Below the pieces are notes generated by a model. The model worked only from the letters and a program-made list of their open reading frames with translations. It was not told where the DNA came from and made no database searches. From positions 54,053 to 118,052 of the IMG/VR virus record IMGVR_UViG_3300030102_005172: 64,000 nucleotides of DNA. One strand, written 5' to 3'. Made by a program: the position numbers and the translations under genes. This DNA is from a virus. This document shows, piece after piece, positions 23,932-54,303 of the stretch (the stretch's first letter is position 1; every line of letters starts with the position of its first letter).

Positions 23932-26334
23932 TTATTCAGGGAACGCTGCGCCTGTTGGTAGTACATTGAAATCAAGTACTATAAACTCTGCAGTTTTCGC
24001 TGGTTGAATAAAAATCTCTCCTTTTAAGATGTTTCTATCAATAATATCTGGTGTATTATTTGATTCATCCATTATTACTCGGAATGCGAACAAACCTTGT
24101 CTCTGTTGTACTGACTCTAAGTAAGGGTTAACTATACTTAAGAATCTGTTTCTTGTCGCTGCCGTATTATTTTCGAACAATAAGAATCTTGAAGATGATG
24201 CGATGAACTTCTTCAATGCGATTAACAATCTTCTTACATTGATTCTGTCAAGTGCGGATGGTCTAGCTTGGAGTGTTTTTTGTCCAAATACCGTAGCACC
24301 TTGTCCAGGGAATGTAGCGATTGGGTTAATTCTATTTTCGTATAATGTATCTCTTTCATCGTGAGTTAATCTTGATTTAACTTCGATTACATTTGATAAA
24401 CCACCTCTGTTAAGACCTGCTGGTGCGAACCATGGTTCTGCAACTGCGTCATTAAATGCGATAACACCTGGTAATACAACACTTGGTGGTACCCAGACTG
24501 GCTTATTTTTATCTGTATCAAGGATTTTAACCCATGGATGATAAGTTCCAACATAATTTGAATCGAATGAACTTAGTGAGTTAACTACTGTTGCGATTGA
24601 ATCTGAATAAGACCCAGCGTCCATTACATAGAATGCGTCTTGTCTATCTTCTACCATATCTTTTGCAAAAGTAGTTACTGATGAGTGTAGTCTATTGATT
24701 ACACCTGGTGTAACTAACATATTCATATCATACTCATCAGGGTTTGACATTGCGTTAATAGCTTTTCTAAATGCAATCGTACCACCTGCAGTCGCTGATG
24801 ATAAATCTAATCCTTGCATATTACCTGCAACAATGTTTTCTCCTGTAAGTATTGTTCTGTTTGGTGCGAATCCATCAAATCCACCTTGGAATGGTACATT
24901 GAATTTTTTATTGTCTATAATACCATCGTTTAGTGTAATTGCTGCTCCATTTGAAATACAATTACTTAGTAAGAACTTAGAACCAACAGTTTCAGAACTT
25001 GAATCTGGAATTGGATTTAAGTAGTTTAAGTTATCTGTATTTGTAAAGTCATATGAGTATCCTAAGAATGCTCTCTTGTTAAATTCACCTGCAATTGACT
25101 GAGTTAGTTCATATGTTGGACTTGGTATATCGTGTCCACTATGAATTGGTGATTTAACTGCTGCAAATCCGAATGGTACAAGACTTGAATCGATTGCTCC
25201 CGCGTCTACATCAGAATTTACTTCTACTCTAATGTTTACAGATGCGTTTGGATAGTCACCATTTGAAGTAACTTTACCATTGTTATCAACAGTAATATAT
25301 TTGTCACCAATTACTCTCTTAATATAGTTAGGTGAATTAGGGTCTAAGTTAAGTCCACTAAACTCTTCTACTATATTTGGTCTAACATCACTATCTTGTA
25401 CATTTTGACCGAAAACAGAATAAGGAATCTTAGAACTATCTACTCTTCTTACTATTACTGAGAATGTTCCATATTCAGAACCAGGTACTTCATTTGCTGG
25501 TTTGATATCTCTAATACCAATTTTAAATTCGTAGTTTGTTGGATTACCATGTGATAGTGTGTGGAATCTAAATAAGTTTTTAGTAACACCTGATACATCT
25601 TGTGATATGATGAAAGGTGTTGTAGCCTCACAATATGCTTTAGTATAGTCGGTTTTTCTAAGTGTATCTATTTCTACATCACAATTAGGGTCGCTGGCAA
25701 AAGACGATGATTGGAATGTTTTAAAGTTTAGATACAGATAACCGAATTCCGAACCATTTTTAGGAGATGAACCAAATGTTTTTCCAATATACTTGGTAGA
25801 TGTTGGGTTCAATGATGCGGTTGCGATTGCAAGTACTGCTGATTCTGATAAACCTGTTACTGCACCTGAAGCACTTAAATATAGTGCGAAGTTTGAAGCT
25901 GATACTTCTGTTGTTGGTGAAGCGGCTGAACCACTTAAGTTAGTGACTACTGATTTATCAAACGAACCTGTTGAGTTTGCTACATTTCCAAATGGAACTT
26001 TTGTAGTTGGGTGAATCACCGCTGCTACTGAACCACTAATCTTTAAAACTAAAGGTTCAACAGTATAACCACTTTGTCCTAATACTCTAACAATAGTTGC
26101 CGTTCCTGCGTCTTCTAAATACGATTGTGCAGTATATGGTAAATATGAATCTTCTGTCAATCCACCGAATACCTGCGTAAATTCTTGAAAGGACTCGACT
26201 TTGGTTGGTACGAATGCAGGTCCTTTAATACTTTGTCCTATAAGTGCTGCACCTATTTCACCAATACCTTGAGGTAAAAATGATAGGTCTTTTTCTCTTG
26301 TGAATACACCTGGACTAACAATTCTTTCTGCCAT
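23932..26334 (-). CDS. tail sheath protein (gp18-like)
   Basis: SPGVFTRE, WFAPAGLNRG, INPI, FGQKTL, DRINVRRL, P.KTAEFI. Confidence 0.96.
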   Translation of the reverse strand: MAERIVSPGVFTREKDLSFLPQGIGEIGAALIGQSIKGPAFVPTKVESFQEFTQVFGGLTEDSYLPYTAQSYLEDAGTATIVRVLGQSGYTVEPLVLKISGSVAAVIHPTTKVPFGNVANSTGSFDKSVVTNLSGSAASPTTEVSASNFALYLSASGAVTGLSESAVLAIATASLNPTSTKYIGKTFGSSPKNGSEFGYLYLNFKTFQSSSFASDPNCDVEIDTLRKTDYTKAYCEATTPFIISQDVSGVTKNLFRFHTLSHGNPTNYEFKIGIRDIKPANEVPGSEYGTFSVIVRRVDSSKIPYSVFGQNVQDSDVRPNIVEEFSGLNLDPNSPNYIKRVIGDKYITVDNNGKVTSNGDYPNASVNIRVEVNSDVDAGAIDSSLVPFGFAAVKSPIHSGHDIPSPTYELTQSIAGEFNKRAFLGYSYDFTNTDNLNYLNPIPDSSSETVGSKFLLSNCISNGAAITLNDGIIDNKKFNVPFQGGFDGFAPNRTILTGENIVAGNMQGLDLSSATAGGTIAFRKAINAMSNPDEYDMNMLVTPGVINRLHSSVTTFAKDMVEDRQDAFYVMDAGSYSDSIATVVNSLSSFDSNYVGTYHPWVKILDTDKNKPVWVPPSVVLPGVIAFNDAVAEPWFAPAGLNRGGLSNVIEVKSRLTHDERDTLYENRINPIATFPGQGATVFGQKTLQARPSALDRINVRRLLIALKKFIASSSRFLLFENNTAATRNRFLSIVNPYLESVQQRQGLFAFRVIMDESNNTPDIIDRNILKGEIFIQPAKTAEFIVLDFNVLPTGAAFPE

Positions 26335-26729: not shown

Positions 26730-27569
26730 TTATTCATTACCACTCTTTTTGGTAATTTTAATACCTGAAAGTGATGGCGCTTCCGTAAATACTGCTTTTC
26801 CTTTTGATATTCTTCGTTTTGTATTATTGTTCAAACCAACAAATTCTGGCACAATATATGCTTTTGCTACCAATGATATTGTTGCTTTAGTAATCCTATC
26901 TTGACCCATCTCTGCGATAGTTTCAAAACTATAAGAATCACCTTTTATTACAAACTTATATCTTTCACCGAAAGACCTTCCTTGAAAGAATACAATTTGT
27001 TCTACTACTTTATTAACCTGTTCCATGTAGTCACACCAAACTATTACTTCATATTGTAAATCAACATAATCTGGTCTTTCGACTGACATAAATTCTCTTT
27101 TAGGACTTTCACCTGTTAGAACTGAAAATTGGTCGTATCTATTTGTTTTAGTATACTTTCTTTCAAATGCTTGATGTGCGTCTTCGTTCTGTGCAACTTT
27201 TAATTTTGATAATTCTGTATTAATTGAAAGATTGTCTCTTTTGAAAACTATAACGGGTGTAAGTATCATTCCGTTATCATCTTTCATAAAACCATCTCGT
27301 TGTGCACTTGCCCATTTTTCAGGTGAAGCATACATTACAGGTACAGGAAAAAATCTTCCATCATCCTCAACAGTTGGTCTTACATCTTTTTCTAAAAATG
27401 TTTTAAATGCAGAATCAACATCGTAAATACCAACACTAACATTTTTTACATTGTCTTTATCTCTTCTAATTTGTTTTGCCTTGTTTAACTTAGGGTCAAC
27501 AGATGTAGAGGATTGTGTTTGTATAATCTGAGGTTTACTTGTATCTGTATTTCTGTATTTTATAGCCAT
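26730..27569 (-). CDS. tail terminator / sheath stabiliser (gp15-like)
   Basis: VPVMYASPEKW motif; T4 gene order gp13-14-15-18. Confidence 0.7.
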   Translation of the reverse strand: MAIKYRNTDTSKPQIIQTQSSTSVDPKLNKAKQIRRDKDNVKNVSVGIYDVDSAFKTFLEKDVRPTVEDDGRFFPVPVMYASPEKWASAQRDGFMKDDNGMILTPVIVFKRDNLSINTELSKLKVAQNEDAHQAFERKYTKTNRYDQFSVLTGESPKREFMSVERPDYVDLQYEVIVWCDYMEQVNKVVEQIVFFQGRSFGERYKFVIKGDSYSFETIAEMGQDRITKATISLVAKAYIVPEFVGLNNNTKRRISKGKAVFTEAPSLSGIKITKKSGNE

Positions 27570-27570
27570 C

Positions 27571-28098
27571 TTATAGTCCTATTGGTACTTCATTATCATT
27601 TTGATTTGAATTACCAAATCTTGTTTCTACTAATTTAATACTTGATTGTCGTGTTACATGGGTATCACATATAATAGATACATTTAAACCTTGAGTTTCA
27701 CCACCATCCCAATACTTAGGATTTTTACCTGCGAAATATTGATATGAATATGCCGCATCAATCAAATGATATTCATTATTCCATTGTATAATGTCACCAA
27801 CTTCAGGTACTAAATCAATACTTACTAATGAATCTCTTAAAAACTTAAATTGAACTTCACGCTGATATGATTGACCAAATTCATCAGATATTTGTGAAGC
27901 TTGGTTTCTTTCTACTAAACATGGTACTTTAATTGGATTGTGAAATACTTTATCTTTACCTTCACCATATAGGTTTGATTTTGTTTCCGTAATCGCTACC
28001 ATATAGTAATAGATTTGTGTATCAATAATATCATTGATAAGTTCTTTGTTCAACTTATTGAACAAATCCATGTCTCTTTGCCCACCGAACAACGCCAT
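27571..28098 (-). CDS. neck protein (gp14-like)
   Basis: NLYGE and PEVGDII motifs; synteny. Confidence 0.75.
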   Translation of the reverse strand: MALFGGQRDMDLFNKLNKELINDIIDTQIYYYMVAITETKSNLYGEGKDKVFHNPIKVPCLVERNQASQISDEFGQSYQREVQFKFLRDSLVSIDLVPEVGDIIQWNNEYHLIDAAYSYQYFAGKNPKYWDGGETQGLNVSIICDTHVTRQSSIKLVETRFGNSNQNDNEVPIGL

Positions 28099-28101
28099 TT
28101 A

Positions 28102-29265
28102 TTATCCTATAAAAATTGGTCTTGGAACTCTGTTTAAAGTTTCCTCTAAAAATTCAGATTCTTCTTTTCGCGCTTCCATTAATGCTCTACGAGAAGTTGA
28201 TTCTAACATTTCTTTCAATTCCGTTAATAAAGTTTCTTTTTCTGCAGATGCCTCATTTCTTAAATCAGCACCATCAAGTGTTACATCCGCACCTGGTATA
28301 GGGATAGAACTAAACTTAGCTCTAATTGCACCTAACATTTCTTTTGCTAATGCCAATGCATATCTTGCAATCCATTGTTTTCCTGCACTATTAATATTTG
28401 TATATGTTAGTCTACCAAATGGTGCATTTGATAAATCACTCACAACATTTGAATTTGCTATTGGTGATTTACTTTCACTTTCTAATGTATAATCAAAATA
28501 TACTTTTGCACCTGCGTCTTTAGATTGTGGGAATGGATATAATCTAATTCGTTTACCATCAACATGGAATCCATATGCAGACTTACGAATAAGGTCATTG
28601 AATTCAATAGCTTGTAATCTTAAAAGGTCATCAAACATAGGTTGCATCATAAATGAGACACCAGGGGAATAATTACCCCATCCAAAAGTTTCTAACATTT
28701 GTTGAGAACCTAAACCTGTACCGATAAATGGGTCAAAGTATCTTATGATTGCTGGTGGTTGTGTATGGAATACTCTTCTAAGTACAATTCCATCACTTAC
28801 TGAACCACTTTCTAAACTTACAACACTTGCGTCACTCAAATCATAAATTTGTTGATTTGCTACCATTGTAAAAGAACCTGTATATACTGTTACTCGTCCA
28901 CCACTTAATCCTTCAGTACCATAATCTTTTGCTATACTAACCATACCACTTAGGTTCGGTGCGATTTCAGTATCTTTTAAATCACCACCCAATGCAGAAC
29001 CTTGTATGGATAACATATTTTCTTTTGCTCTATATTGATTAACTTGTGAAGAATATTCATTAGCTGCCTCTTCAAGACAAGTAAAAAAGTTTATATCTTG
29101 TAATTCGACATCTACGATTGGATATCCTAATCTCTTCGCACACCATTCTGCAACTTTCGGAGCGTCACTTTGAAATTGTGTATCACCATCAAAGTATCCG
29201 AAAGGAGTTGATGAACCACTTGTAAATGAACCTGAGCCAGGCCAAATTGGAATATTTACTGCCAT
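28102..29265 (-). CDS. neck / head-tail adaptor (gp13-like)
   Basis: RLGYPIVDVEL, WIARYALALAKEMLG.IR.KF, VTLDG. Confidence 0.85.
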   Translation of the reverse strand: MAVNIPIWPGSGSFTSGSSTPFGYFDGDTQFQSDAPKVAEWCAKRLGYPIVDVELQDINFFTCLEEAANEYSSQVNQYRAKENMLSIQGSALGGDLKDTEIAPNLSGMVSIAKDYGTEGLSGGRVTVYTGSFTMVANQQIYDLSDASVVSLESGSVSDGIVLRRVFHTQPPAIIRYFDPFIGTGLGSQQMLETFGWGNYSPGVSFMMQPMFDDLLRLQAIEFNDLIRKSAYGFHVDGKRIRLYPFPQSKDAGAKVYFDYTLESESKSPIANSNVVSDLSNAPFGRLTYTNINSAGKQWIARYALALAKEMLGAIRAKFSSIPIPGADVTLDGADLRNEASAEKETLLTELKEMLESTSRRALMEARKEESEFLEETLNRVPRPIFIG

Positions 29266-29300: not shown

Positions 29301-31109
29301 TTAGCTTTCCCTATTTTCCATAAACGAAACTACAATATAACGAGTACCTTTTGTTGTAGCCCTTGCGCCGTGCTTATGTGTTATATTGCCAGGGTGTAAT
29401 GTTGCGTAACCAATTGGACCTTTTACTAACTTCTTTTGTCTTCTAAACCAAGTACCACCACCCTCGTACTCGTCTAAGTCTGATAATTGTATCAAACAAG
29501 TAATATCTGCTCTATCATGATGTATAGAAAGATGTCCTTGTGCATTTGGTTTATATTTAGCTAAAAAGTTTTCAGATTTCATATCATCCCAACCTTTACC
29601 TTCTAACGCCCATAAATATATGCTAAGTTGCATAACATACTCTTTCATGACATCATTATATATTTCATCCATACCGATTGCGGTTAGTAACATATCTGTT
29701 GTTGGGTAGTTTTCATGTCTATCAACAGTCCATGAGTCTGAATATTCTGCCTCTTCTCTAATTTTTTTACAAAACTCTTCTGTAAATAGTGGGAATGTAA
29801 AACAACTATCAAAAGGTTCATCTACAATCAAATCCCATTCTTTTGTTCTAGCCGAGTATGTAATAAACTTCTTTGTCCATTCTTCTTTATTATCCCAATA
29901 TGAATATAAATCATTATGTAATCTTTGTGAGTCTTGAGGTGGTCTAAATCCCCTAGCCTCATCTGGTAATGTGTCTTGTATCATGTTTAACCAAGTTTTA
30001 TATCTATTATCCCAATTTTGTTGTCTTGCAAATGTTTCTGCTTTGTTTAAATTTTCTTCTAATTTATCACCTTGTTCATTTGAAAAAGCATATGCCGCAA
30101 CAAAAGTATATCTCATTAATCCTGCGTTTTTATTTTCAATGTCTTCATCACTATCTTCTAAAAAAGGTGACTTTTGTTCTTGATTTTTTCCATGTGTAAA
30201 TGAACTAATTAATGTACTTTTATTATTTAGTAATGTTTTTAAATTACCTGTATCTGTTGATAGTACTTTCACTCTACCCATCATCATTTCAAGAGCGGTT
30301 ATACAATATGTTTCAGGATATTGTGATGGATAAATCCACCACTCAGAAGATTTAATTTGTCTAATCAAATCGGATGGATTTAAAGAACCTAAATAATGTA
30401 CATCAAAATTTTTATCATAATTTGGAAAATCTCTTTTGATTCTATTCCATTCGTCCCAATTGTCAGTATAAGGTGGGTTTGCAATCCATAATGTTAATTT
30501 AGGATTTATCTTTTTTAAATCATCCCATATTTGAAGTAAGTTCCATAACCCTCTATCTGGTCCTGATGTATAAATTACTTTATCTTTAAATTTTTCTTGT
30601 GAAATATCATCAAAATCTTGTGGATTTATTGCATTACTTATGACTTTTACTTTATCTGGATTTATATTATATTTTTTAACTAATTTACCTTTTTGCCATT
30701 CTGATACTGCAATTATATTTGTTAATTTAGAATGATTTAGATAGTCTAATCCATTATTTGGTAAAACCTCACCATTGTAAAATGGATAAAATTCTAAATT
30801 ATGTATCCAAAAGTACGATTTGTCAAATGTAATATTTTTTTCTTCAAGGTGTTTAAAATAGTGTATATAATTTGATGCAATTACTACATCAAAGTGTTGA
30901 TTATTTGGAAGATTTCTATAATCAAGATATTTTACATTATTATATGTTTCTTGTTTAACTTGTCCTGTAACATAAACATCATGACCATCACGACCAAACT
31001 TATCTGCTAAATTAATAACACAATACTCAGAACCACCTGTACCATTTTCTTTCCAATCAGTATAACTAAGTGGTTTGTTTTGATATCCTACTGTAAATAA
31101 AACTTTCAT
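29301..31109 (-). CDS. GT-B (GT4-like) glycosyltransferase fused to a PLOD-like lysyl hydroxylase (2OG-Fe(II)) domain
   Basis: N-part: GGSE, IAVSEWQ, YTSGPDRGL, YPSQYPETYCITALE. C-part: FPLFTEEFC, ENYPTTD, NFLAKY.P..Q..L..HHD, YEGGG, LHPG..THKHG..TTKGTRYIVVSF. Confidence 0.88.
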   Translation of the reverse strand: MKVLFTVGYQNKPLSYTDWKENGTGGSEYCVINLADKFGRDGHDVYVTGQVKQETYNNVKYLDYRNLPNNQHFDVVIASNYIHYFKHLEEKNITFDKSYFWIHNLEFYPFYNGEVLPNNGLDYLNHSKLTNIIAVSEWQKGKLVKKYNINPDKVKVISNAINPQDFDDISQEKFKDKVIYTSGPDRGLWNLLQIWDDLKKINPKLTLWIANPPYTDNWDEWNRIKRDFPNYDKNFDVHYLGSLNPSDLIRQIKSSEWWIYPSQYPETYCITALEMMMGRVKVLSTDTGNLKTLLNNKSTLISSFTHGKNQEQKSPFLEDSDEDIENKNAGLMRYTFVAAYAFSNEQGDKLEENLNKAETFARQQNWDNRYKTWLNMIQDTLPDEARGFRPPQDSQRLHNDLYSYWDNKEEWTKKFITYSARTKEWDLIVDEPFDSCFTFPLFTEEFCKKIREEAEYSDSWTVDRHENYPTTDMLLTAIGMDEIYNDVMKEYVMQLSIYLWALEGKGWDDMKSENFLAKYKPNAQGHLSIHHDRADITCLIQLSDLDEYEGGGTWFRRQKKLVKGPIGYATLHPGNITHKHGARATTKGTRYIVVSFMENRES

Positions 31110-31110
31110 A

Positions 31111-32397
31111 TTATTCTACTATATAATTAACAGATTCTTCATTTTCATAATATCGATTGTCATCCCTATAACCAATTTCTTTTATAGAATGTCCTGCCTC
31201 ATCATCCCACATCCAATCTTCTTTTCCAAGTTCTTCAAATCTTTCTTTGATTTGAAAATCATAATAATCTCTAATCAACCTTGCTCTTCGATTAATATCT
31301 ATTCTATTGTTATCAACAGTAGAATCACCATTATTATATTGTACATATAGCATTTTTTTCAGATGTATAAATTTAGTTTCTAAAAATGTTTTAATAATTA
31401 ATTCAAAATCATCTGCTACTGATATGTTTCTACTATGTCCTCTTATTTTATGATAAGTATCTCTATGCCAAACTCTACAATGATTAGGCATTCCTATATT
31501 ATATCTAATAGTTTTTGGATTTATTTCTGGATAATGATGAACTAACCAATCTCTATTATCAATGTTTTTCCAAGTGTGACCTGCGTATCCCCACACAAAT
31601 CCATTATCAGGATGATGATACCAATCATCACCGATGTGACCATAAATTCTTGGTGAATCATCTTTTTCTATTTCTGTTACATCCGTATAAATAAATCCAG
31701 CGTCTTTATGTTTTCTACTTGCATTTAGTACATCCTCTAAACAAGTTGATATTAACCAATCATCATGGTCTAACTCAAATAACCACTCACCATCACATAA
31801 CATAGCCGCTCTGTGTTTTGCTTCACCCACATTTCCACCTGATATTGGGAGTATTCTATGTGGTTTTACTCTATAATCTAACTTTGCTATATGATTTAAC
31901 ATTTCCCAAGTTAAATTATGGTCTTCAGGTGAATCATCTACAACTACCCATTCCCAATTTTGATATGTTTGTTCAACTAAAGATTTGTATGTTCTAAAAA
32001 TTCTTTTTTCTGTTTTATATGTTGGTGTAAATACTGATAATAATGGAGTTTCTTCATTACTATAAATTTCATTTGTTGAACAAGCCCAAAATGTTGAATT
32101 ACAAACTATATCATTTGCAATAATGTTGTCACTTAGTATTTCTTCACTACCAATTATTTTTGATTCAACTATTAGATTATCTATTTCTTCTAATTCAATA
32201 GGTAACTTACCAAAATGAAAAATAACATCTGGTTTATGTTTAGATAAATGTAGTTTAAAGTTTTTACTTGAAGGATATGAGTGTACTACTACTTTTTCAT
32301 ACAAACCTTCTTGAAAATAGACATCTGATGTAAGTTCATATCTTCCAAATCTATTCCAACCATAAACTAAAGCCGTTGGTAAAGTTGTTTTTTGCAT
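31111..32397 (-). CDS. GT2 glycosyltransferase
   Basis: LSVFTPTY, QTYQNWEWVVVDDS, FELDHDD, ADDFELI. Confidence 0.9.
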   Translation of the reverse strand: MQKTTLPTALVYGWNRFGRYELTSDVYFQEGLYEKVVVHSYPSSKNFKLHLSKHKPDVIFHFGKLPIELEEIDNLIVESKIIGSEEILSDNIIANDIVCNSTFWACSTNEIYSNEETPLLSVFTPTYKTEKRIFRTYKSLVEQTYQNWEWVVVDDSPEDHNLTWEMLNHIAKLDYRVKPHRILPISGGNVGEAKHRAAMLCDGEWLFELDHDDWLISTCLEDVLNASRKHKDAGFIYTDVTEIEKDDSPRIYGHIGDDWYHHPDNGFVWGYAGHTWKNIDNRDWLVHHYPEINPKTIRYNIGMPNHCRVWHRDTYHKIRGHSRNISVADDFELIIKTFLETKFIHLKKMLYVQYNNGDSTVDNNRIDINRRARLIRDYYDFQIKERFEELGKEDWMWDDEAGHSIKEIGYRDDNRYYENEESVNYIVE

Positions 32398-32400
32398 ATC

Positions 32401-33003
32401 CTATCTGTATGGTTCACCACCTACCCATAATACAAAAGATTTTCTTACACCTTTTGTTACAGGAGTTATTCTATGTAAATAAAATGATGGAAATATTACT
32501 GCAGCACCTTGTACTCTTGGTGCAACAAGTTTTTTACCAATATTAAACTCTAAATCACCACCTTCGTATTCATCTGAATCTGAAAGTTGTACAGTTACTG
32601 ATATTTTTCTTTGATTTTGTATTTCAATTCCACAATCCATGTGCCATTCATATCCACCTTCTTGTGTTCCATAGTATTCTGTATATTGAATTTGTTCATT
32701 CATGGTAGATAAATCAAACTTCCACATTTTATTATTTGATTCTGCAATCATATCGTGAAGTTTTTTGTATACCCATCCCCATTCTTGATTTTGAGGACAC
32801 CACTTTATTCTTGATTTTCTATAATCTGATTTTTTTGATTGTTGACCTTCGCCTGTTACTGCGTCTTGAAACTCAATTTGTTTGGTCATACCTTCTATGG
32901 TTTGTAACTCTTGTAGAGTAAATCCATCTTTAAACCAATAATAATCGTTGAAATTAACATCCCATCTATAAGGGTTTCTATCGAATCCAAAATTTGTTCT
33001 CAT
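32401..33003 (-). CDS. 2OG-Fe(II) oxygenase (PKHD / prolyl-hydroxylase-like)
   Basis: WHMD, RKISVTVQL, YEGGDL, FPSFYLHRITPVTKGVRKSFVLW. Confidence 0.92.
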   Translation of the reverse strand: MRTNFGFDRNPYRWDVNFNDYYWFKDGFTLQELQTIEGMTKQIEFQDAVTGEGQQSKKSDYRKSRIKWCPQNQEWGWVYKKLHDMIAESNNKMWKFDLSTMNEQIQYTEYYGTQEGGYEWHMDCGIEIQNQRKISVTVQLSDSDEYEGGDLEFNIGKKLVAPRVQGAAVIFPSFYLHRITPVTKGVRKSFVLWVGGEPYR

Positions 33004-33044: not shown

Positions 33045-36000
33045 TTAGTAAAAGCTACCACTATGTACAGACCTTACTATGTAAACATCATCACCCTCAG
33101 ACCAACCTTCAGGTTTAAATGTTAGTACACCACCAGTAACTTCAAAGTATCCATCGCCAGGTATTTGAGAACCTTGAGCACCTGCTCCACCACCCGTTCC
33201 TACTGTTCCTGTTGGTCCTTGAGCACCTTGAGCACCTTGATTACCTTTAGCACCTACTGCGCCAGTATTTCCTTTATTACCTTTAGAACCTTTAGTACCT
33301 ACTGCGCCTGTATTACCTTTTTTACCTTTGTTACCTGCGTCACCTGTTTCGCCTGTACGACCTAAGTTACCTTTACTACCTTTAGCACCTGCATTACCTT
33401 GTGGACCTGTATTACCCTTTTGACCTTTTGAACCTTGAGCACCTTCATCACCAGATGCGCCTGTATTACCTTTTATACCTGTAAGACCTGTATTACCTTT
33501 TTGACCTTTAGCACCTGCGTCGCCTGTTTCACCCGTTGCACCTGTTGAACCTTGTCGACCCTCTCCACCTGTTGAACCTTTAGCACCTGCGTTACCTTGT
33601 ACTCCTTTATGTCCCTTGTTTCCTTTTGAACCTTGAGCACCCTCATCACCTGATGCGCCTGTTGAACCTCTATTACCTTTGTTACCAGTTGCACCTTGAG
33701 AACCTACTGCACCTGCGTTACCTTGTGCTCCTCTATTTCCCTTGTTACCCGTTGCACCTTTATTACCTTTTGCACCTGCCGCGCCTGTATTACCTTTTAC
33801 ACCAGTTGCACCTTGAAGTCCTTGAGCACCTTCATTACCTGATGCGCCTGTTGAACCTATATTACCTTTGTTACCAGTTGCACCTTGAGCACCTTGGTTT
33901 CCACTTGCACCTTGAGCACCTCGATTACCCTTTGCACCTTGATTTCCTTGAGAACCTTGATTTCCTGCCGCGCCTGTATTACCTTTTACACCAGTTGCAC
34001 CTTGAGCACCTTGAGCACCTTCATCACCTGAAGCACCTTGTACTCCTTTATGTCCCTTTTGACCTTTTGAACCTTGAGCACCTTGATTACCTTTAGCACC
34101 TGCTGCACCTTGAGAACCTACTGCACCTTGAACTCCGGCATTACCTTGAGAACCTTGATTACCTGCAGCGCCTGTATTACCTTTTACACCCGTTGCACCT
34201 GGTTCACCTTTTTTACCTTTTTGACCCACAGAACCTTGAGCACCTTGAGCACCTTGGTTTCCTTTTGCACCTTGAGCACCTTGATTACCTTTAGCACCTG
34301 CAGCACCTTGAGAACCTACTGCACCTTGAACTCCGTCATTACCTTGAGAACCTTGATTTCCTGCTGCGCCTGGGTTTCCTATTTTACCATCACGACCTAA
34401 ATTACCTTTTTGACCTTTGTTACCACTTGCACCTTGAGCACCTTGAGCACCTCGGTTTCCTTTTGCACCTTGATTACCTTTAGCACCTTTAGCACCTGCC
34501 GCACCTTGAGCACCTTCAGCACCTTGAACTCCGTCATTACCTTGAGAACCTTGATTACCTGCTGCGCCGGTATTTCCTTTATGACCATTACGACCTAAAT
34601 TACCTTTTTGACCTTTATTACCTGCAGCGCCTGTATTACCTTTTGCACCTTGATTACCTTGAGAACCTTGATTACCTGCAGCGCCTGTATTTCCTTTTAC
34701 ACCAGTTGCACCTTGAGCTCCCCTAGCACCTTCATCTACTAAACCACCTACTGCACCTTGAGCACCTTGAGCACCTGCAGCACCTTGTTCACCAGTAAAA
34801 TCTTCCTCTAATATTTGTTCAGGGTCCATGTCAGAACCTTTTTGTCCCTTAGAACCTTGATTACCTTGATTACCTTTAACACCAGTTGCACCTTGAGGGC
34901 CTGTTGCACCTTGAGGGCCTGTATTTCCTTTTGCACCTTGTAGACCTGTTGCACCACCTTCACCTTTTGGACCTGCCGTACCTCTATTCCCTTTATCACC
35001 TGTTGCGCCTGTATTTCCTTTTGCACCTTGTCTACCTGTGTTTCCACTATTCCCAACTGCACCTTGAGCACCTTGTGCACCTGTTTCACCATCAAAGTCT
35101 GGCTCTAATATTCCTTCGGGGTCCATCTCAGAACCTTTTTGTCCCTTTTGACCTGTTGCACCTTGATTACCTTTAACACCAGTTGCACCTTGAGGGCCTG
35201 TTGCACCTTGAGGGCCAGTTGCACCTTTTAAACCTTGTGGACCTTGAGCACCACCTTCACCTTTTGGAGCTCCAGCGCCAGTATTACCTTTTGCACCTGT
35301 TCTACCCGTTGCACCTGTCGAACCTTTAGCACCTGCGGCGCCCCTATTTCCTTTTGAACCTGTACGACCTAAGTTACCTTTAGCACCAAAATCACCCCCA
35401 CTACCTTTATTTCCTTTTACACCTGTTGCACCTTGAGCACCTTGAGCGCCTGTTTCAGCCGCTGCACCTTGTCTACCTGTATTTCCTTTTACACCTTGTG
35501 GACCTTGAGCACCTTGGTTTCCACTTGCACCTTTATTTCCTTTATGGCCTGTTGCACCTGCTGCACCTTGAGCACCTTGATTACCTACTCGGCCTGTATT
35601 TCCTTTTGCACCTTGTCTACCTGTGTTTCCACTTGGAGCGTCTACACCTGCCGCACCCGGCACACCAGTATTTCCTTTATGGCCTGTTGCACCCATTGAA
35701 CCTTTTTGACCTGCGGCGCCAGTATTTCCTTTATGGCCTGTTGCACCCGTTGAACCTTTTTGACCTGCAATACCTGTATTTCCTTTTACACCTGTTGCGC
35801 CTGTATTTCCTTTTGCACCTTTATTACCTGCAGCGCCTGTATTACCTTTTGCACCCGTTCTACCTTGATTACCCGTTGAACCTTTTTGACCTACTGCGCC
35901 GGTATTTCCTTTTGCACCTGTTCTACCCGTTGCGCCTGTTGAACCCTTTGCACCTGCTGCGCCTGTATTTCCTTTTGCACCTGTTCTACCTAAATTTCCT

Positions 36001-37148
36001 GTTGGTGGGTCTGCACCTGCCGAACCTGGCCTACCTACTCGGCCTGTATTTCCTTTTGAACCTGTTGCACCTTGAGGGCCTGTTGCGCCTGTTGGGGCGT
36101 CTGAACCTGCCGCTCCTTGAGCACCTTGAGCACCATTTAGGGCCACATCAGCTGAAGCTCCTTGAGCACCAGCAGACCCAACTTTTCCTTGAGAACCTGC
36201 TGCACCTTGAGCACCTTGAGCACCTGTTGGTCCAAGTTGTCCAGCTGGTGCCAGATGTTCCTCTCCTTTTTGACCTTTTGAACCTTTAGGACCTGTTGAA
36301 GAGTCTGAATCGGTACAAGAACTACAATTTGAGAACCAATCGAAATTATCTACAGTTAAACATAATGCAGTACCATCTGGAAAACTAGCGTTTGTACCAC
36401 TAAAGTTGTAACAAATATTACTGATTTTTGCTACATTGTTTGGTCTTGTATCATCAAATGCAAAACTTGCTGGTCCATATCCACTACATCTTGGTACATT
36501 ATTATACTGAACTGAACATCCCTCATCACCATTAAAAAAGTTGTGTACTACGAATCTATTTACCATGAATAGGTCAGATTCTTCTACATCTAAACTTCTA
36601 ACATCAAAATATCCATATATAGGTTCATCTTCATTTACTTCTTGTACACCATCTATAATTGGTACATATTCGAATGTAGAATTATCTTCTTTTAGTCTTA
36701 CTAAGTAATGATTGTCATAATCACTTGCATTTCCCCACTCAAGACCATCTAATTGTTCAAAGAAAACATTCCATCCGCTTTGAAAAGATGATGTAGTTTC
36801 AGTTTCTTCGTCCCAACTAAATGCTCTATTTTTTTGAGCAACCATGATGTATTCATCTTCATCGAGAGTTAGTGAACCTGATGGTGTTTCTAATGTGTAT
36901 AGTGATTTCCAAAGTCTTGTACCTATTGGTCCTACATCTTTGATAACCTCATTTTCATTTAATTGAAGATATGAAAAATCATCGTAACTACCTGTCCAAT
37001 TTATTGGAATGTCATTATTATTTGTATATGGGTTACCAACAATACTAACACCTACAATAGAAGAACCTGTTTGAAGTGTACCTATTGCGGCAGTATTACC
37101 TGATAGATTTAGTAAAGTATGTTGAGATTTTAAGAAACCACCAATCAT
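33045..37148 (-). CDS. collagen-like fibre protein A: Hint domain, Cys-rich domain, Lys-rich Gly-X-Y
   Basis: N-domain ends [18 protein letters not shown] (Asn203); 6-Cys segment; about 1040 aa Gly-X-Y rich in GAK/GNK/GQK. Confidence 0.88.
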
Positions 37149-40100
37149 TGTAACCTTTTATTTTATTTTAAGAAGAACCACTTGTATACATTAATACTAC
37201 AAATTTTGTACTTCCACTTGTAAATGTTAATAATCCGTCTGTTGCCGAGTATGCGAATCCACCACTTCCACCTATTTCAGCGCCACCAATTAATGTTCCT
37301 AATGCATTTGCACCTTTTTGACCTTTACTTCCTTGACCACCTTGAGCACCTGTTGCACCTTGAGCACCTTGTTCACCTGTTGGACTAGCACCTTGAGCAC
37401 CTTGAGCACCTTGGTCACCTTTTGGACTGGCACCTTGAGCACCTTGAGCTCCTGTTGGACTTGCACCTTGAGCACCTTGTGGTCCTTGAGCACCTTGAGC
37501 ACCTTGAGGACTTGCACCTTGAGCACCTGTTGCACCTTGAGCACCTTGTTCACCTTGTTCACCTGTTGGACTAGCACCTTGAGCACCTTGAGAACCTTTT
37601 GGTCCTTGAGCACCTTGAGCTCCTTGAGGACTTGAACCTTGAGCACCTTGAGGTCCTTGAGCACCTTGTGGTCCTTGAGCACCTTGAGCACCTTGAGGAC
37701 TAGCACCTTGAGCACCTGTTACACCTTGAGCACCTTGTTCACCTTGTTCACCTGTTGGACTTGCTCCTTGAGCACCTTGAGGTCCTTGAGCACCTTGAGG
37801 TCCTTGAGCACCTTGAGGACTTGACCCTTGAGCACCTTGTGGTCCTTGAGCACCTTGATTACCTTGAGCACCTTGAGGACTAGCACCTTGAGCACCTTGT
37901 GAACCTTTAGGTCCTTGAGCACCTTGTTCACCTGTTGGACTAGCACCTTGAGCACCTTGAGGTCCTTGAGCACCTTGATTACCTTGAGCACCTTGAGGAC
38001 TTGAACCTTGAGCACCTTGTTCACCTTGTTCACCTTTTGGTCCTTGAGCACCTTGAGGACTGGCACCTTGAGCACCTTGTGAACCTTTAGGTCCTTGAGC
38101 ACCTTGTTCACCTGTTGGACTAGCACCTTGAGCACCTTGGACACCTTGAGCACCTTGAACACCCGTTGCACCTTGAGCACCTTGAGGACTTGAACCTTGA
38201 GCACCTTGTTCACCTTGTTCACCTTGAGCACCTTGAGCACCTTGAGGACTGGCACCTTGAGCACCTTGAGAACCTTTTGGTCCTTGAGCACCCTGTTCAC
38301 CTTGTGGACTTGCCCCTTGAGCACCTTGGAGACCTGTTGCACCTTGAGCACCCGTTGCACCTTGAGCACCTTGCGGACTTGCACCTTGAGCACCTTGTTC
38401 ACCTTGTTCACCTTGAGCACCTTGAGCACCTTGTGGACTTGCTCCTTGAGCACCTTGAGAACCTTTTGGTCCTTGAGCACCTTGAGCACCTTGTGGACTT
38501 GCCCCTTGAGCACCTTGGAGACCTGTTGCACCTTGAGCACCCGTTGCACCTTGAGCACCTTGAGGACTTGAACCTTGAGCACCTTGTTCACCTTGTTCAC
38601 CTTGAGCACCTTGAGCACCTTGAGGACTGGCACCTTGAGCACCTTGAGAACCTTTTGGTCCTTGAGCACCTTGAGCTCCTTGAGGACTTGCACCTTGAGC
38701 ACCTTGAGAACCTTTTGGTCCTTGAGCCCCTGTTGGACTTGCACCTTGAGCACCTTGAGAACCTTTAGGTCCTTGAGCACCTGAATCACCTTGAGCACCT
38801 TGAGCACCTTGAGCACCTGCAGCACCTTGAGCACCTGCACTACCTTGAGCACCTTGTAGACCTTGAGCACCAGTACCTTGGTCACCTTTAGGACCTTTTG
38901 CACCTTGTGCACCTGTATTACCTTTAGGTCCTTGAGCACCTTGTGGTCCTTGAGCACCCGTTGCTCCTTGAGCACCTTGAGGTCCTTGAGCACCTTGAGC
39001 ACCTTGTGGACTTGAACCCGTTGCTCCTTGAGCACCTTGTGGTCCTTGAGCACCTTGATTACCTTTAGGTCCTTGAGCACCTTGAGCACCTGTTGTTCCT
39101 TGTGCACCTTGATTACCTTGAGCACCCGTTGCCCCTTGAGCACCAGCACCTTGGTCACCTTTAGGACCTTTTGCACCTTGTGCACCTGTATTACCTTTAG
39201 GTCCTTGAGCACCTTGTGGTCCTTGCGCACCCGTTGCACCTTGAGCACCTTGATTACCTTGTGGACCTTGAGCACCTTGTGGACTTGAACCTGCCGCTCC
39301 TTGAGCACCTTGAGGTCCTTGAGCACCTTGAGCACCTTGTGGACTTGAACCTTGAGCACCTTGTGAACCTTTAGGTCCTTGAGCACCTTGAGCACCTTGT
39401 GGACTAGCACCTTGAGCACCTTGATTACCTTTTGGTCCTTGAGCACCTTGAGCACCTTGAGGTGATGACCCTGCAGGTCCTTGAGCACCTTGTGAACCTT
39501 TAGGTCCTTGAGCACCTTGAGGACTGGCACCTTGAGCACCTTGATTACCTTTAGGTCCTTGAGCACCTTGAGCACCTTGTGGACTTGAACCTTGAGCACC
39601 TTGTGAACCTTTTGGTCCTTGAGCACCTTGAGCACCTGTTGTAGTTCCACCTTGTGGACCTTGAGCACCTTGAGACCCTTTAGGTCCTTGAGCACCTTGA
39701 GGACTTGAACCTTGAGCACCTTGTGAACCTTTAGGTCCTTGAGCACCTTGAGGACTTGAACCTTGAGCACCTTGTGAACCTTTTGGACCTTGAGCACCTT
39801 GTGAACCTTTTGGACTTGAACCTTGAGCACCTTGTGAACCTTTTGGTCCTTGAGCACCTTGAGCACCTTGTGGACTTGAACCTTGAGCACCTTGTGAACC
39901 TTTTGGACCTTGAGCTCCTTGAGCACCTTGAGGACTTGCACCTTGAGCACCTTGAGAACCTTTTGGACCTTGAGCACCTTGAGCACCTGTTGTAGTTCCA
40001 CCTTGTGGGCCTTGAGCACCTTGTGCACCTTGAGAACCTTTTGGTCCTTGAGCACCTTGAGGTCCTTGAGAACCTTGTGTAGTTCCACCCGTTGCACCTT

Positions 40101-40280
40101 GAGCACCTTGAGAACCTTGTACACTTGCACCCGTTGCACCTTGAGCACCTTGAGAACCTTTTGGTCCTGAACTACCCGATGAACCTTGAGCACCTGTTGG
40201 TCCTTTTGCACCTGTTGAACCTGGCGAACCACCGGCACCTTTTTGACCTTTTTGACCTTTTTGACCTTGTGGTCCTGTGT
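33170..40280. repeat. two low-complexity 9-bp-unit repeat tracts (core CACCTTGAG) encoding collagen triplets
   Basis: About 33170-36300 and 37310-40280, separated by unique sequence. Confidence 0.95.
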
Positions 40281-40722
40281 TATGTACTAATAACTCACCT
40301 ATAAAATAATTGTGGTCAGGTTCTACCTCTATACTTATGAGTTCTATTGGTCCTTCTACATATTTTACTGAAGTGACCTTAATATCGTTGAAGAATAGTT
40401 TACCATCACACTTACAATCTTTATCTGCGCATGATGTATTACCGATTGGTGAAACCCATTCACCATCTTTGAATATTTTTATATCAACGGAAGTTTTTAA
40501 TTCAGTTCCGTCTGAAAGTTTAAGTTCTAAATAGGAGTTTAGTTGTCGTGTAAATTTAGTTACAACCTTGTTGTACCTTACGACACCATTTTCAACATCA
40601 TAACCTTTTATGTAGTCACCAACTTCAATATTTGACAAGTTAATTGGAACACCTTGTCTTTTATTTACTCTTCCTTTGATGTCTACTAAGGTATCTTTAT
40701 GTAATCCATGTATTAATTCCAT
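37168..40722 (-). CDS. collagen-like fibre protein B: Hint domain and Gln/Pro/Ser-rich Gly-X-Y
   Basis: [43 protein letters not shown]|T (Asn148); about 990 aa GAQ/GPQ/GPK with G(A/S)SPQ interruptions. Confidence 0.9.
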
Positions 40723-40732
40723 AATTTACCCC

Positions 40733-41569
40733 TTAACTAACAAAATCAAGTCTTAATATTATTGTAAAACCAAATCCTCGTGACCTTGTGGTTGCCATTC
40801 TATTAATAAATAAATTTAATCTATCATTAGCACTAAAACTATATGATGAACCAAAAGTATAAGTTGTTGGAACACCTGCCGTTGCTGAAATTGAACCACC
40901 TATTGCACTTCCTAAATTTCCAGATTGGTTTTTCCATGTTAGTTCAACTTCACCACCCGTTGCAGATTGATGTGGACTTACAATTACTTTTTCTACATAT
41001 CCATCTACGGGAACAACATATTGCCAATAACCAGTTTGAACATCACCATCTATTTGGTTTATATTTGCAAATGGGATATAACCAGTTGTTTCAGCTGCTT
41101 TTAGTACCTCACCATTTGTATGTATTATTTGTTTTTCTTTTGTTGCGTCAATTAGACCAGTAATTTCAACACCACTACTCTGTACTCTTAATTTTGTACT
41201 ACCACCTCGTCTAAGATGTACTTCATCACTAGCATTTAAAAGTAATTTAGTACCTGAAGTTGTAGATTCTATGTCAGAACTTGCTCCGAAGTTCACTTTC
41301 TTATCTGAAGATAGGTTTATTTCATCTGCAGTAGTGATATCACCACTAACTTGTAAAGAACCTGTGACTTGAACACCAGTATTATTTGTTTTTAATCTTG
41401 TTGAACCGCCTGTTACAAGTACAATAGTATTACCTGCACTAAATCCAAATTTAGTGTCTGTATCACCTAAGTGTTCAACATATTGTGGTATAAGTATTTC
41501 ACCTGATGCGGTGATATCATTCAGTACGGCGTTACTGCCTGATGTAATAAGTTTTTTCCAATTTGGCAT
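40733..41569 (-). CDS. putative fibre/virion protein
   Basis: MPNWKKLITSGS N-terminus, beta-rich Gly/Ser/Thr composition. Confidence 0.7.
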   Translation of the reverse strand: MPNWKKLITSGSNAVLNDITASGEILIPQYVEHLGDTDTKFGFSAGNTIVLVTGGSTRLKTNNTGVQVTGSLQVSGDITTADEINLSSDKKVNFGASSDIESTTSGTKLLLNASDEVHLRRGGSTKLRVQSSGVEITGLIDATKEKQIIHTNGEVLKAAETTGYIPFANINQIDGDVQTGYWQYVVPVDGYVEKVIVSPHQSATGGEVELTWKNQSGNLGSAIGGSISATAGVPTTYTFGSSYSFSANDRLNLFINRMATTRSRGFGFTIILRLDFVS

Positions 41570-42084: not shown

Positions 42085-43797
42085 TTACACATAGATATAA
42101 ATCTCATTTGATTCTATTCTAATATTACCTGCGTGGTCTGCTTTTGCAGTTGCTGCGTCATCTGCATTTCCTGAGAATACACCTGCTACATAGTAACCAG
42201 TAGTTCCAGCTGCAAAGTTAGAAGTACTATTGTGAGCAACATCAGTTGTTGATACTGCCAAACGACCATCATTACTATTAAAAGAATAATCCCAAATAAG
42301 TGCTTTACCTTGTTGTGCAGTTCCACTTGTTCCACCAAATACAATACCTGCGTCTTTTGCAGTTGAACCAGAGTTAACCAAAATAAATTGGTCTTCTACA
42401 TTCAAGTTTGTAGTATTAAGTGTTGTTGTTGTACCATTAACTACTAAATCACCAGATAATGTTAAATTAGCAAATGCTACATTATTACCTGTTGCTAGTC
42501 CTTGGTCAATTGCTTTAACTGCTGCTAGGTTAGTTAATTCAGAATCCATTAATGCTCCAGCTGCCGTTACATTAGTCGCATCTGTTACATCTGCACCATC
42601 TTCTACATTTAATGCAGATAACATTTCAGTTTTATTTAAACCTTCTACATCTGTTCCGTTGATTCTTAAGAAATCATCGTCTGCTACATCAGCTGCTGCG
42701 ATTAAAACATTTCCTTCTGAAATACCACTTGCTAATGATTTTACAAATGCAAGATTTGTTACTTCTGAATCCATCAATGCACCTGCATTTGTTACATTTG
42801 TAGTATTTGCAGTTAACTTAGCGTCATTTGCAGTTACTCTTGTACTAAATGAAGCACTTGCTTGTACGAATGAACCTGAAATTCCTGCTTTTGTTAATCC
42901 TTTAACCAATGCTAAATCAGTAACTTCTGAATCCATCAATGCACCTGCTGAAGTTACATTTGCAGTATCAGTAACATCTGCATTATTCTCAACACTAATC
43001 ATTGTTCTAACTTGTGCTGCAGTCAATGCGCTTGGTGCTGCTGAACCTTCTGATACATTACCTAAAATCCTAGCGTCTGCAATATTTGCAAGTTTCGCTA
43101 ATGTAACACCACTATCTTTAATTCTTAGTGCGTCTGAGTTAAGTTCGATTGTTGAATCATCAACACCTACTGCTAATGAAATAGTTCCATTACTTCCTGT
43201 ATTTACAGTAAATGAACCACCACCTGATAAACCATTACCTGCAGTTATTGTGATTGTTGAATCTTGAACACCACCTAATGCAGATACCTGCGCTGATGAT
43301 GATACTAATCCTGCACCTAATCCTGCTAATGCGGTTGCTGATAATGAACCTGAGATTCCTGCTTTTGTTAATGCTTTTACTGTTGCGATTTCTGTAAGTT
43401 CAGAATCCATTAATGCACCTGCACTTGTTACATTTGCAGTATCAGTTACATCTGCTCCGTCTTCAACATTAATTAATGTTCTTACATTTGCAGCAGTTAA
43501 TTCACTTGGTGCTGCTGAACCACCTGAAACATTACCTAATATTCTATCATCGGCGATGTTTGCTATTTTTGCGAGTGTTACACCACTATTTTTTACACTA
43601 ATGGTTCTCGCACCAGAACCATCATATGTGGTTCCTGAGTTAAGTTGGATTGTCGAATCATCTACCGTCAGACTATTTCCAACTTGGGTTGCCGTCCCTG
43701 TTACATTACCAACTAAATTTCCTTTGAATCCGGCGGATGCGGATACATTAAGAAGGTCGGCACTTGAACCTGAGACAATGACTTTTTTCCATCCCAT
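42085..43797 (-). CDS. tail fibre-like protein with internal repeats
   Basis: Four (ADVTD..)NVT.AGALMDSE units; GDLVVNGTTTTLNTTNLNVED fibre motif; SD AGGAG. Confidence 0.75.
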   Translation of the reverse strand: MGWKKVIVSGSSADLLNVSASAGFKGNLVGNVTGTATQVGNSLTVDDSTIQLNSGTTYDGSGARTISVKNSGVTLAKIANIADDRILGNVSGGSAAPSELTAANVRTLINVEDGADVTDTANVTSAGALMDSELTEIATVKALTKAGISGSLSATALAGLGAGLVSSSAQVSALGGVQDSTITITAGNGLSGGGSFTVNTGSNGTISLAVGVDDSTIELNSDALRIKDSGVTLAKLANIADARILGNVSEGSAAPSALTAAQVRTMISVENNADVTDTANVTSAGALMDSEVTDLALVKGLTKAGISGSFVQASASFSTRVTANDAKLTANTTNVTNAGALMDSEVTNLAFVKSLASGISEGNVLIAAADVADDDFLRINGTDVEGLNKTEMLSALNVEDGADVTDATNVTAAGALMDSELTNLAAVKAIDQGLATGNNVAFANLTLSGDLVVNGTTTTLNTTNLNVEDQFILVNSGSTAKDAGIVFGGTSGTAQQGKALIWDYSFNSNDGRLAVSTTDVAHNSTSNFAAGTTGYYVAGVFSGNADDAATAKADHAGNIRIESNEIYIYV

Positions 43798-53734: not shown

Positions 53735-54303
53735 TTTATTAGGTCTTTCAATTTCATTGATTTAGATTCATTTGTAAATTCTTTTGCATTTTCTTTATCA
53801 TCTTTGTCAACAGACTTTACAGGATATTTTTTACCATCTACTTCAAATTCATTTTCTCCTTTAGCAATCGCTTTAGCTCTTGCAGCGCCAAATTCGTTTC
53901 CTTCTTTAATTTCATAATATTTCGAAAGTACTTCACCGATTTCATCATAAGTGGACTCCAATCTCTGTTGTAGTGTATGAACCTCTGTTAAAGTCTTTTG
54001 GAAAACTTTAAAAGATTCGTTCATAGATTTCATGTGTCTATTTACTGTAACTCTATCAAACCAATCACCTGTTTCTTCAAGTGTTACTTTGTTTGCGTTT
54101 TCAACAATACCTTTAATAGCAGTATATGTTTCCATAAGGTCACCATTACGATAAATTGTTTCACCAAATTTCTTGTATGCAGATACGGCTTCAAGAAATG
54201 CTTTCTTTTCTTCAGAAGTCATTTTTTGTTCTTTTTCTTCTTCACCGATATTTAGTCTTCTATAATCTTTAGTAGATTCTTTTAATAAGCTTTTTAATTT
54301 CAT
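53731..54303 (-). CDS. putative prohead core/internal protein
   Basis: MKLKSLLKE N-terminus; follows the protease gene. Confidence 0.65.
   Translation of the reverse strand: MKLKSLLKESTKDYRRLNIGEEEKEQKMTSEEKKAFLEAVSAYKKFGETIYRNGDLMETYTAIKGIVENANKVTLEETGDWFDRVTVNRHMKSMNESFKVFQKTLTEVHTLQQRLESTYDEIGEVLSKYYEIKEGNEFGAARAKAIAKGENEFEVDGKKYPVKSVDKDDKENAKEFTNESKSMKLKDLIK

Follow-up and report, generated by a model that had tools for sequence, protein, structure and literature searches.

A putative collagen lysyl hydroxylase-glycosyltransferase with a GT-B domain, encoded beside collagen-like fibre genes in an uncultured marine T4-like phage

Introduction

Hydroxylation of collagen lysines followed by O-glycosylation is documented, in the literature that we found and within the accessible text of the papers cited here by PMC number, for animals and mimivirus only. 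The closest described enzymes are animal LH3/PLOD3 (PDB 6fxk, 8zgc), together with PLOD1-2, and mimivirus L230 (895 aa; lysyl hydroxylase (LH) domain in PDB 6ax6 and 9nev). In collagen-like peptides, L230 converts Lys into hydroxylysine, to which it then attaches glucose; its N-terminal domain resembles GLT25D1, of family GT25, and its C-terminal part resembles PLOD1 (PMC9614988). Another mimivirus protein, R699, is reported as a glucosyltransferase (PMC9546862, PMC12279948). Here we describe P0001, a 602-aa protein in which a PLOD-type LH domain is fused to a glycosyltransferase (GT) of family GT4. It is encoded in a 64,000-nucleotide stretch of DNA, hereafter the window (positions 54,053 to 118,052 of IMG/VR virus record IMGVR_UViG_3300030102_005172); the whole record spans 118 kb and has an estimated completeness of 66%. 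The source of this record is an uncultured marine T4-like phage.

P0001 shares with LH3 and PLOD1-2 a homologous C-terminal LH domain of about 210 aa, with the Fe triad and the Arg and Tyr that bind 2-oxoglutarate (2OG) common to both, and in LH3 as in P0001 the C-terminal hydroxylase is joined to a glycosyltransferase in a single chain. The two proteins differ in their N-terminal parts, which consist of a PLOD GT domain of GT-A fold and an accessory domain in LH3 but of a GT4 domain of GT-B fold in P0001. They also differ in their setting, as LH3 is an enzyme of the endoplasmic reticulum whereas P0001 is cytoplasmic and phage-encoded, with phage fibres as its presumed substrates. L230 is likewise virus-encoded and acts on the virus's own collagen-like proteins, which carry Lys in the Y position of Gly-X-Y repeats (PMC9614988). 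However, L230 comes from a giant virus of a eukaryote and P0001 from a tailed phage, and the active transferase of L230 is a GT25-like domain of GT-A fold within a GT25 - PLOD-GT-like - LH architecture, unlike that of P0001.

At the level of the pathway, the phage lineage resembles the animal COLGALT1/GLT25D1 plus LH3 route to glucosyl-galactosyl-hydroxylysine (Glc-Gal-Hyl) in combining LH, GT25 and a further, probably retaining, transferase. The third enzyme is the PLOD GT-A domain in animals but a GT4 (GT-B) in the phages, which have a GT2 and a second oxygenase in addition. On the glycosyltransferase side, PimA, BshA, MshA and WaaG have the GT-B fold, the EX7E motif and the Pfam GT4/GT1 signatures in common with P0001, but their identity to it is only 12-15%, they lack a dioxygenase fusion, and they transfer sugars to lipids or small molecules. 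Bacterial dioxygenases modifying collagen-like proteins were predicted previously, in other families (PMC2938197), and the accessible text of PMC13382579 mentions neither phages nor bacteria. A search of the freely accessible literature turned up no paper on a phage lysyl hydroxylase, a GT4-LH fusion or hydroxylysine glycosylation on phage tail fibres.

Results and Discussion

A PLOD-type hydroxylase domain in P0001

The open reading frame (ORF) encoding P0001 runs from ATG to stop exactly at positions 29301-31109 and, like all large ORFs of the window, lies on the minus strand. The gene and its two domains are as follows.

29301..31109, minus strand: GT4-LH fusion gene P0001, 602 aa (ORF, translation, Pfam, PDB sequence matches, model, Foldseek)
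29970..31109, minus strand: GT4-type GT-B glycosyltransferase domain, approximately residues 1-380 (Pfam PF13439 and PF00534, invariant residues, Foldseek)
29304..29936, minus strand: PLOD-type LH domain, residues 392-602 (LH3 alignment, template modelling (TM) score to L230, invariant residues)

Residues 392-598 of P0001 were aligned by phmmer to residues 498-714 of the human LH3/PLOD3 chain in the PDB with an E value of 6.7e-30, and the LH domain of mimivirus L230 (6ax6) matched at 2.7e-22, whereas the next-best oxygenase in this search, PiuC, reached 0.33 only. In Pfam, the OGFOD2-like family PF25238, which covers the N-terminal part of the PLOD LH domain, was found at residues 395-500 with 38.9 bits (cut-off 31). 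Identity to LH3 and L230 was 30-40% across the entire domain, and the LH half of the structure model described below matched the L230 LH domain with a TM score on the target of 0.85 and a root-mean-square deviation of 2.4-2.7 Å over about 205 columns (Foldseek). The similarity of the LH domain to these enzymes is far beyond chance. The PLOD motifs that an earlier note on this DNA had recognised (FPLFTEEFC, ENYPTTD, NFLAKYKPNAQGHLSIHHD, YEGGGTWF and LHPGNITHKHGARATTKGTRYIVVSF) are all present in the translation, and they align column for column with human LH3.

The residues of known function in LH3 were mapped by hand onto P0001 from the PDB search alignment, with a chain numbering offset of +23 and the HxD motif as anchor; their roles were taken from PMC6082870, which gives His667, Asp669 and His719 as the Fe triad and Arg729 and Tyr656 as 2OG-binding residues. 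The Fe ligands correspond to H530, D532 and H580 of P0001 and the 2OG-binding residues to R590 and Y519, and all five were invariant in an alignment of 28 full-length homologues with 41-88% identity. Several other positions differ. Cys691, which lines the 2OG pocket of LH3, is replaced by T553, with Thr invariant among the 28 homologues; the capping loop (LH3 590-610) is 9 residues shorter, with no counterpart to Asp597 or to Arg599, the Lys mimic; and in the second Fe site of LH3, His595 and Asp611 are retained as H465 and D472 whereas His613 is changed to L474. These three differences affect regulatory features and not catalytic ones.

PLOD LH domains form a tail-to-tail homodimer via Leu715 in LH3 and L873 in L230. 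The equivalent of Leu715 in P0001 is I576, which is invariant in the 28 homologues, and the residues of the cavity are partly conserved. A homodimer prediction with two copies of LH residues 385-602 and the alignment gave a score of 0.00, which weighs neither for nor against dimerisation.

A GT4 domain in place of the PLOD glycosyltransferase

The N-terminal half of P0001 matched the Pfam families Glyco_transf_4 (PF13439; residues 120-164, 36.1 bits, cut-off 28.5) and Glycos_transf_1 (PF00534; residues 185-298, 35.4 bits, cut-off 26.4), and the same Pfam search gave no match in P0001 to the PLOD GT domain PF25342. The EX7E motif, which characterises GT4, is formed by E266 and E274, and the Gly-rich loop contains G23 and G26; these four residues and H103 were invariant in the 28 homologues. 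The domain lacks a close relative of known function, its best PDB sequence match being 7mi0 (E 0.0013). An AlphaFold2 model built from the 28 homologues had a mean predicted local distance difference test (pLDDT) value of 83.4 and two well-folded halves, with low-confidence linkers at residues 307-329 and 382-394. Its N-terminal half matched retaining GT4 enzymes of GT-B fold with TM scores on the target of 0.55-0.72 (Foldseek), the values for PimA (0.70), BshA (0.65-0.69), WaaG (0.63-0.65) and MshA lying at 0.63-0.72, and glycogen synthase was also among the matches.

Domain searches and model thus agree with the earlier proposal of a PLOD-type LH domain fused to a GT4-like GT-B domain of about 380 aa, which replaces the GT-A domains of LH3 and L230. 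Since the Fe and 2OG residues and the EX7E motif are intact and invariant, both the LH and the GT4 domains look active and are predicted to be so. We therefore regard P0001 as a putative bifunctional collagen lysyl hydroxylase-glycosyltransferase in which a GT-B domain replaces a GT-A domain.

A cassette with two collagen-like fibre genes

The neighbourhood of the gene, which the earlier note had overlooked although its description of the fusion was right, provides the strongest evidence on function: substrate-like collagen genes and a conserved cassette. In order of transcription, the genes are the following.

44581-48930, 42085-43797 and 40733-41569, minus strand: baseplate and tail-fibre genes
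37168..40722, minus strand: collagen-like fibre protein A, 1184 aa, presumed substrate (Pfam Collagen, E 8.6e-85)
33045..37148, minus strand: collagen-like fibre protein B, 1367 aa, presumed substrate (Pfam Collagen, E 8.5e-139)
32401..33003, minus strand: second 2OG-Fe(II) oxygenase, 200 aa, PKHD/PiuC type (PF13640, E 3.6e-13; NCBIfam PRK05467 type; PiuC in the PDB, E 7e-7)
31111..32397, minus strand: GT2 (GT-A) glycosyltransferase, 428 aa (PF00535, E 1.8e-16; chondroitin synthase in the PDB, E 1e-12)
29301..31109, minus strand: P0001, as above
28102..29265, minus strand: neck or head-tail adaptor-like gene, directly downstream of P0001 (PHROG 211 head-tail adaptor, E 4e-14)
27571-28098, minus strand: 175-aa ORF
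26730-27569, minus strand: gp15-like gene
23932-26334, minus strand: tail sheath (best match Microcystis phage Mel-JY01, 55% identity)

The gene closes a tightly packed cassette inside the virion structural module, with gaps of 3 nt between oxygenase and GT2 and of 1 nt between GT2 and P0001. In comparison with T4, the cassette occupies the position of gp12 and wac, ahead of the neck genes.

The X-Lys-Gly triplet is the target site of collagen lysyl hydroxylases, and Lys in the two fibre proteins is found almost exclusively in the corresponding Y position (113 in Y vs 4 in X for both proteins). In fibre protein A, Gly-X-Y runs account for 873 aa and contain 35 Lys in Y, mostly as GPK, and none in X; in fibre protein B they account for 966 aa and contain 78 Lys in Y and 4 in X. 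Pro occurs once in Y in protein A and four times in protein B. Other residues are also frequent in Y, namely Gln (189 and 80 in the two collagens), Ser and Thr (38 and 20, respectively, in protein A) and, in protein B, 71 Thr, and the X position is rich in Pro or Asn.

Conservation of the cassette across viral loci

A protein search retrieved 261 homologous clusters, most of which were full-length fusions (555-603 aa) recovered from metagenomes, including Tara, and relatives were encoded in 336 viral contig stretches. Synteny was counted in 80 loci kept from these stretches, which are partly redundant and were scanned with the window proteins and a Gly-X-Y detector; identity of the GT4-LH protein among them was 50-76%. 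A collagen-like ORF was present in all 60 loci with at least 2.6 kb of upstream sequence, and the 200-aa oxygenase in all 64 loci with at least 2.1 kb upstream, always between the collagen gene and the transferases. GT2 was found in 63 of the 68 loci with at least 1.4 kb upstream (missing in L052, L073, L074, L076 and L077). Downstream, the neck-like gene, the 175-aa ORF and gp15 accompanied the fusion in 80/80 loci, and the sheath gene in 78/80. Summed over these partly redundant loci, Lys was counted 4412 times in Y vs 88 in X, and Pro 57 times in Y vs 1884 in X. These data indicate that the LH domain is widespread in tailed phages, and its fusion to GT4 in marine T4-like phages.

Megablast of the gene matched no GenBank phage record, and tblastn against GenBank phages gave partial matches in 15 records, none of them spanning 80% of the query. 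The GenBank phage collection therefore offers no cultured phage as a handle on the GT4-LH fusion.

A family with shuffled glycosyltransferase domains

When 1.84 billion representative proteins were searched with the LH domain (phmmer), 1956 matched at E ≤0.001, 476 at 1e-10 and 86 at 1e-30. Among the best 150 of the 1956 matches, 86 proteins were 300 aa or longer, and the architecture of each of these was typed with Pfam, with the following result.

GT4-GT25-LH: 19/86
Long N-terminus without a family, followed by GT25-LH: 4/86
GT25-LH: 13/86
GT4-LH: 3/86
PLOD-GT - LH (animal type): 15/86
GT25 - PLOD-GT - LH: 10/86
PLOD-GT - GT25 - LH: 1/86
Other fusions (peptidase C39, prolyl-hydroxylase-type oxygenase domain, DUF6445): 3/86
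LH without N-terminal Pfam family: 18/86

GT25, the family of the collagen galactosyltransferase COLGALT1, was thus a partner in 47 of the 86 proteins, the PLOD GT domain in 26 and GT4 in 22. From these architectures, GT4 and the PLOD GT domain appear to be alternative further transferases beside GT25, and the form with GT25, PLOD-GT and LH appears to be the L230 type. P0064, a near relative, has the architecture of P0001 with GT25 inserted at the linker, its LH domain being 75% identical and its GT4 domain 43%. The earlier note had considered P0001 an independently assembled enzyme; P0064 and the GT25-bearing relatives make it one variant of a shuffling family, and that description was dropped.

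The placement of the LH domain was also examined in a tree of 124 rows (unrooted, quick search; 33 of 157 sequences were dropped for less than 170 aa of coverage). The LH domain of P0001 grouped with those of other GT4-LH proteins, adjacent to GT4-GT25-LH and GT25-LH proteins, and 20 of the 26 rows bearing a PLOD GT domain fell in one group of 33 with support 99, whereas the deep branches were weak (support 44). The phylogeny, which had been suggested as a check, thus placed P0001 among the GT4-LH and GT25 fusions; as the tree is unrooted and its deep branches are weak, no conclusion on the origin of PLOD is drawn from it.

In the phages with the three-domain GT4-GT25-LH protein, the cassette had the same gene content, including GT2, in 7/7 loci with upstream DNA. 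The possibility that GT2 stands in for the missing GT25 of the two-domain proteins was ruled out by this retention of GT2. A stand-alone GT25 was encoded elsewhere in 5/5 near-complete two-domain relatives vs 1/14 control bacterial genomes. A location of this gene beside the fibre genes was also ruled out, its neighbours being thymidylate synthase, methyltransferase and kinase-like genes. In loci L115 and L116 (relatives G008 and G007, respectively), GT25, which in L115 is the ORF at 6252-7010, lies amid genes for thymidylate synthase, FkbM-type and other methyltransferases, and cytidylyltransferase-like and APS-kinase-like proteins, surroundings that may represent a sugar or sulfate activation module.

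Besides glycosyltransferases, LH domains were found fused to peptidase C39, to a prolyl-hydroxylase-type 2OG oxygenase domain, to DUF6445 and to C-terminal TPR repeats (P0162, P0251, P0133, P0126). These fusions hint at substrates beyond collagen-like fibres.

Bacterial relatives

Relatives were also found in eight bacterial genome loci, from Granulosicoccaceae, Rhodobacteraceae, Chromatiales and other metagenome-assembled genomes (MAGs). Loci L084-L087, from MAGs of Granulosicoccaceae, Chromatiales and Aliishimia, contain full-length GT4-LH genes that stand by themselves, with housekeeping genes around them. The Pfam family Collagen was detected elsewhere in 5/5 LH-bearing bacterial genomes (in 4 of them over the cut-off) vs 4/14 controls. 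The only clear case with Lys in Y was a collagen-like protein of the Aliishimia MAG, with 64 Lys in Y and 1 in X, encoded about 1.3 Mb from GT4-LH (L091). This co-occurrence is weak support for collagen-like substrates.

Proposed pathway and alternative explanations

The position of the fusion directly behind two Lys-rich collagen-like fibre genes suggests that the phage probably adds hydroxyl groups and sugars to its own fibres, and we consider it probable that P0001 is a bifunctional enzyme carrying out Lys hydroxylation and then glycosylation on them. The order of these two steps, already proposed in the earlier note, is the most parsimonious interpretation. The LH domain would convert Y-position Lys of both fibre proteins, within the infected cell, into 5-hydroxylysine, whose hydroxyl would then be O-glycosylated. 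By analogy with COLGALT1 and L230, GT25 would add the first sugar, in trans here and in cis in the relatives that carry it in the same chain. The retaining GT4 would attach a sugar in alpha linkage. It would do so either at the second step, in the role that the PLOD GT-A domain has in LH3, or on hydroxylysine itself. The glycan may be lengthened further by the neighbouring GT2, the second oxygenase may act on another residue, and the glycosylated fibres, at the gp12/wac position, might serve host recognition or virion stability.

Several observations weigh against this proposal. Hydroxylysine and its glycan on phage fibres remain predictions for every member of the family. Lys in the Y position is also favoured by triple-helix stability, so that the bias seen in the fibre proteins is compatible with hydroxylation and not specific for it; in addition, the counts come from LH-bearing loci alone. 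Relative to LH3, the LH domain has Thr553 for Cys691, Leu474 for His613 and a shortened capping loop without Asp597 and Arg599. GT25 was not found in the window's own record, which at 66% completeness does not establish its absence. The stand-alone GT25 of the relatives sits in a metabolic region far from the fibre module and could serve lipopolysaccharide (LPS) chemistry; its link to the fibres is therefore not established. Finally, no collagen-like ORF was detected near the eight bacterial homologues (within 10 kb either side, or as far as the contig extends), and the neighbours in the two bacterial loci that were scanned were housekeeping genes, so that these loci give no clue to the substrate.

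The two activities might also be directed to different sites, with LH hydroxylating fibre Lys and GT4 attaching sugars to Ser or Thr residues of the fibres or to a different virion protein. In that case hydroxylysine would serve cross-linking or stability, or only GT25 or GT2 would glycosylate it. O-glycosylation of Ser-rich repeat proteins by GT4 enzymes is known, the two collagens are rich in Ser and Thr at X and Y, and the 13 GT25-LH proteins among the 86 indicate that GT25 alone suffices as a partner of LH. However, the covalent GT4-LH fusion persists over 50-88% identity, and GT4 takes the place that the PLOD GT domain has in the GT25-GT_PLOD-LH proteins. The persistence of the fusion and the position of GT4 argue for one coupled pathway, and we regard separate targets as unlikely. 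As for the hydroxylation step, a dioxygenase specificity other than Lys C5, such as X-Pro, Gln, Asn or another carbon of Lys, would fit the richness of the collagens in Y-Gln and in X-Pro or X-Asn, as well as the replacement of Cys691 by Thr and the shortening of the loop that gates the LH3 active site, with loss of Arg599. Against such a specificity, the Fe/2OG pocket is conserved within a domain 30-40% identical to LH3 and L230 over its whole length, a separate oxygenase is available in the cassette for another residue, and L230, whose distance from the animal enzymes is similar, is a genuine lysyl hydroxylase (PMC9614988). A target other than Lys C5 thus appears very unlikely.

A different kind of explanation is that the gene is an auxiliary gene acting on the host, with GT4 remodelling LPS or other surface glycans and the oxygenase hydroxylating a host protein or a small molecule. 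In PMC7029224, glycosyltransferases of this region are interpreted as LPS modifiers in marine myophages and as O-chain modifiers in pelagimyophages, homologues carry the source name 'glycosyltransferase involved in cell wall biosynthesis', and the bacterial homologues stand alone without collagen neighbours. These points are countered by the invariant collagen adjacency in the phages (60/60 loci), by an oxygenase that is specifically PLOD-like (E 7e-30 vs 0.33 for the next oxygenase) and by fusion partners, GT25 and GT_PLOD, that are both collagen-glycosylation families. At least one of the bacterial carriers, the Aliishimia MAG, also encodes a Y-Lys collagen-like protein, elsewhere in its genome. 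We consider a host-directed role distinctly unlikely, and modification of the phage's own fibres by hydroxylation and subsequent glycosylation remains the explanation that we favour.

Implications

As a model, the proposed modification of the fibres is open to direct testing and would represent a new kind of glycosylation of phage fibres. Some glycosyltransferases in the host-recognition region of marine myophages, previously taken as LPS modifiers (PMC7029224), could be reinterpreted in its light. The enzymes are small and suited to the bacterial cytoplasm, and could be used to hydroxylate and glycosylate recombinant collagens in E. coli. Furthermore, the shuffling of GT25, PLOD-GT and GT4 domains is relevant to the question of how the animal LH3/COLGALT system came together. 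A broader and tentative proposal, on the unlikely side in our estimation, is that abundant marine T4-like phages themselves encode a complete pathway for collagen hydroxylysine glycosylation (LH, GT25, GT4 in place of the PLOD GT-A domain, GT2 and the second oxygenase) whose glycan, on the virion fibres, would set host recognition, and that the LH/COLGALT machinery of animals and giant viruses would be descended from such a phage or bacterial cassette for fibre modification, rather than the reverse.

Additional features of the locus

The target of the second oxygenase could be X-Pro, Gln or Asn, since Pro in the fibre proteins is nearly confined to X and Gln is very abundant in Y. In GT2, the GT-A core covers residues 115-247, and about 115 N-terminal and about 180 C-terminal residues match no family. 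Fibre proteins A and B begin with globular domains of about 148 and 290 aa, respectively, which end in VHN before the fibre part and look like Hint/intein domains. The G+C content is 0.43-0.52 over window positions 34000-40000 vs 0.29-0.37 elsewhere, corresponding to the Gly-, Ala- and Pro-rich collagen repeats, and the overlapping long ORFs in this region (for example 37719-40238, on the same strand but in a different frame) are most likely spurious products of the repeats. The 1449-aa protein encoded at 44581-48930 matches a baseplate wedge/tail-fibre connector PHROG at its N-terminus (E 7e-35) and has a weak cadherin-domain match.

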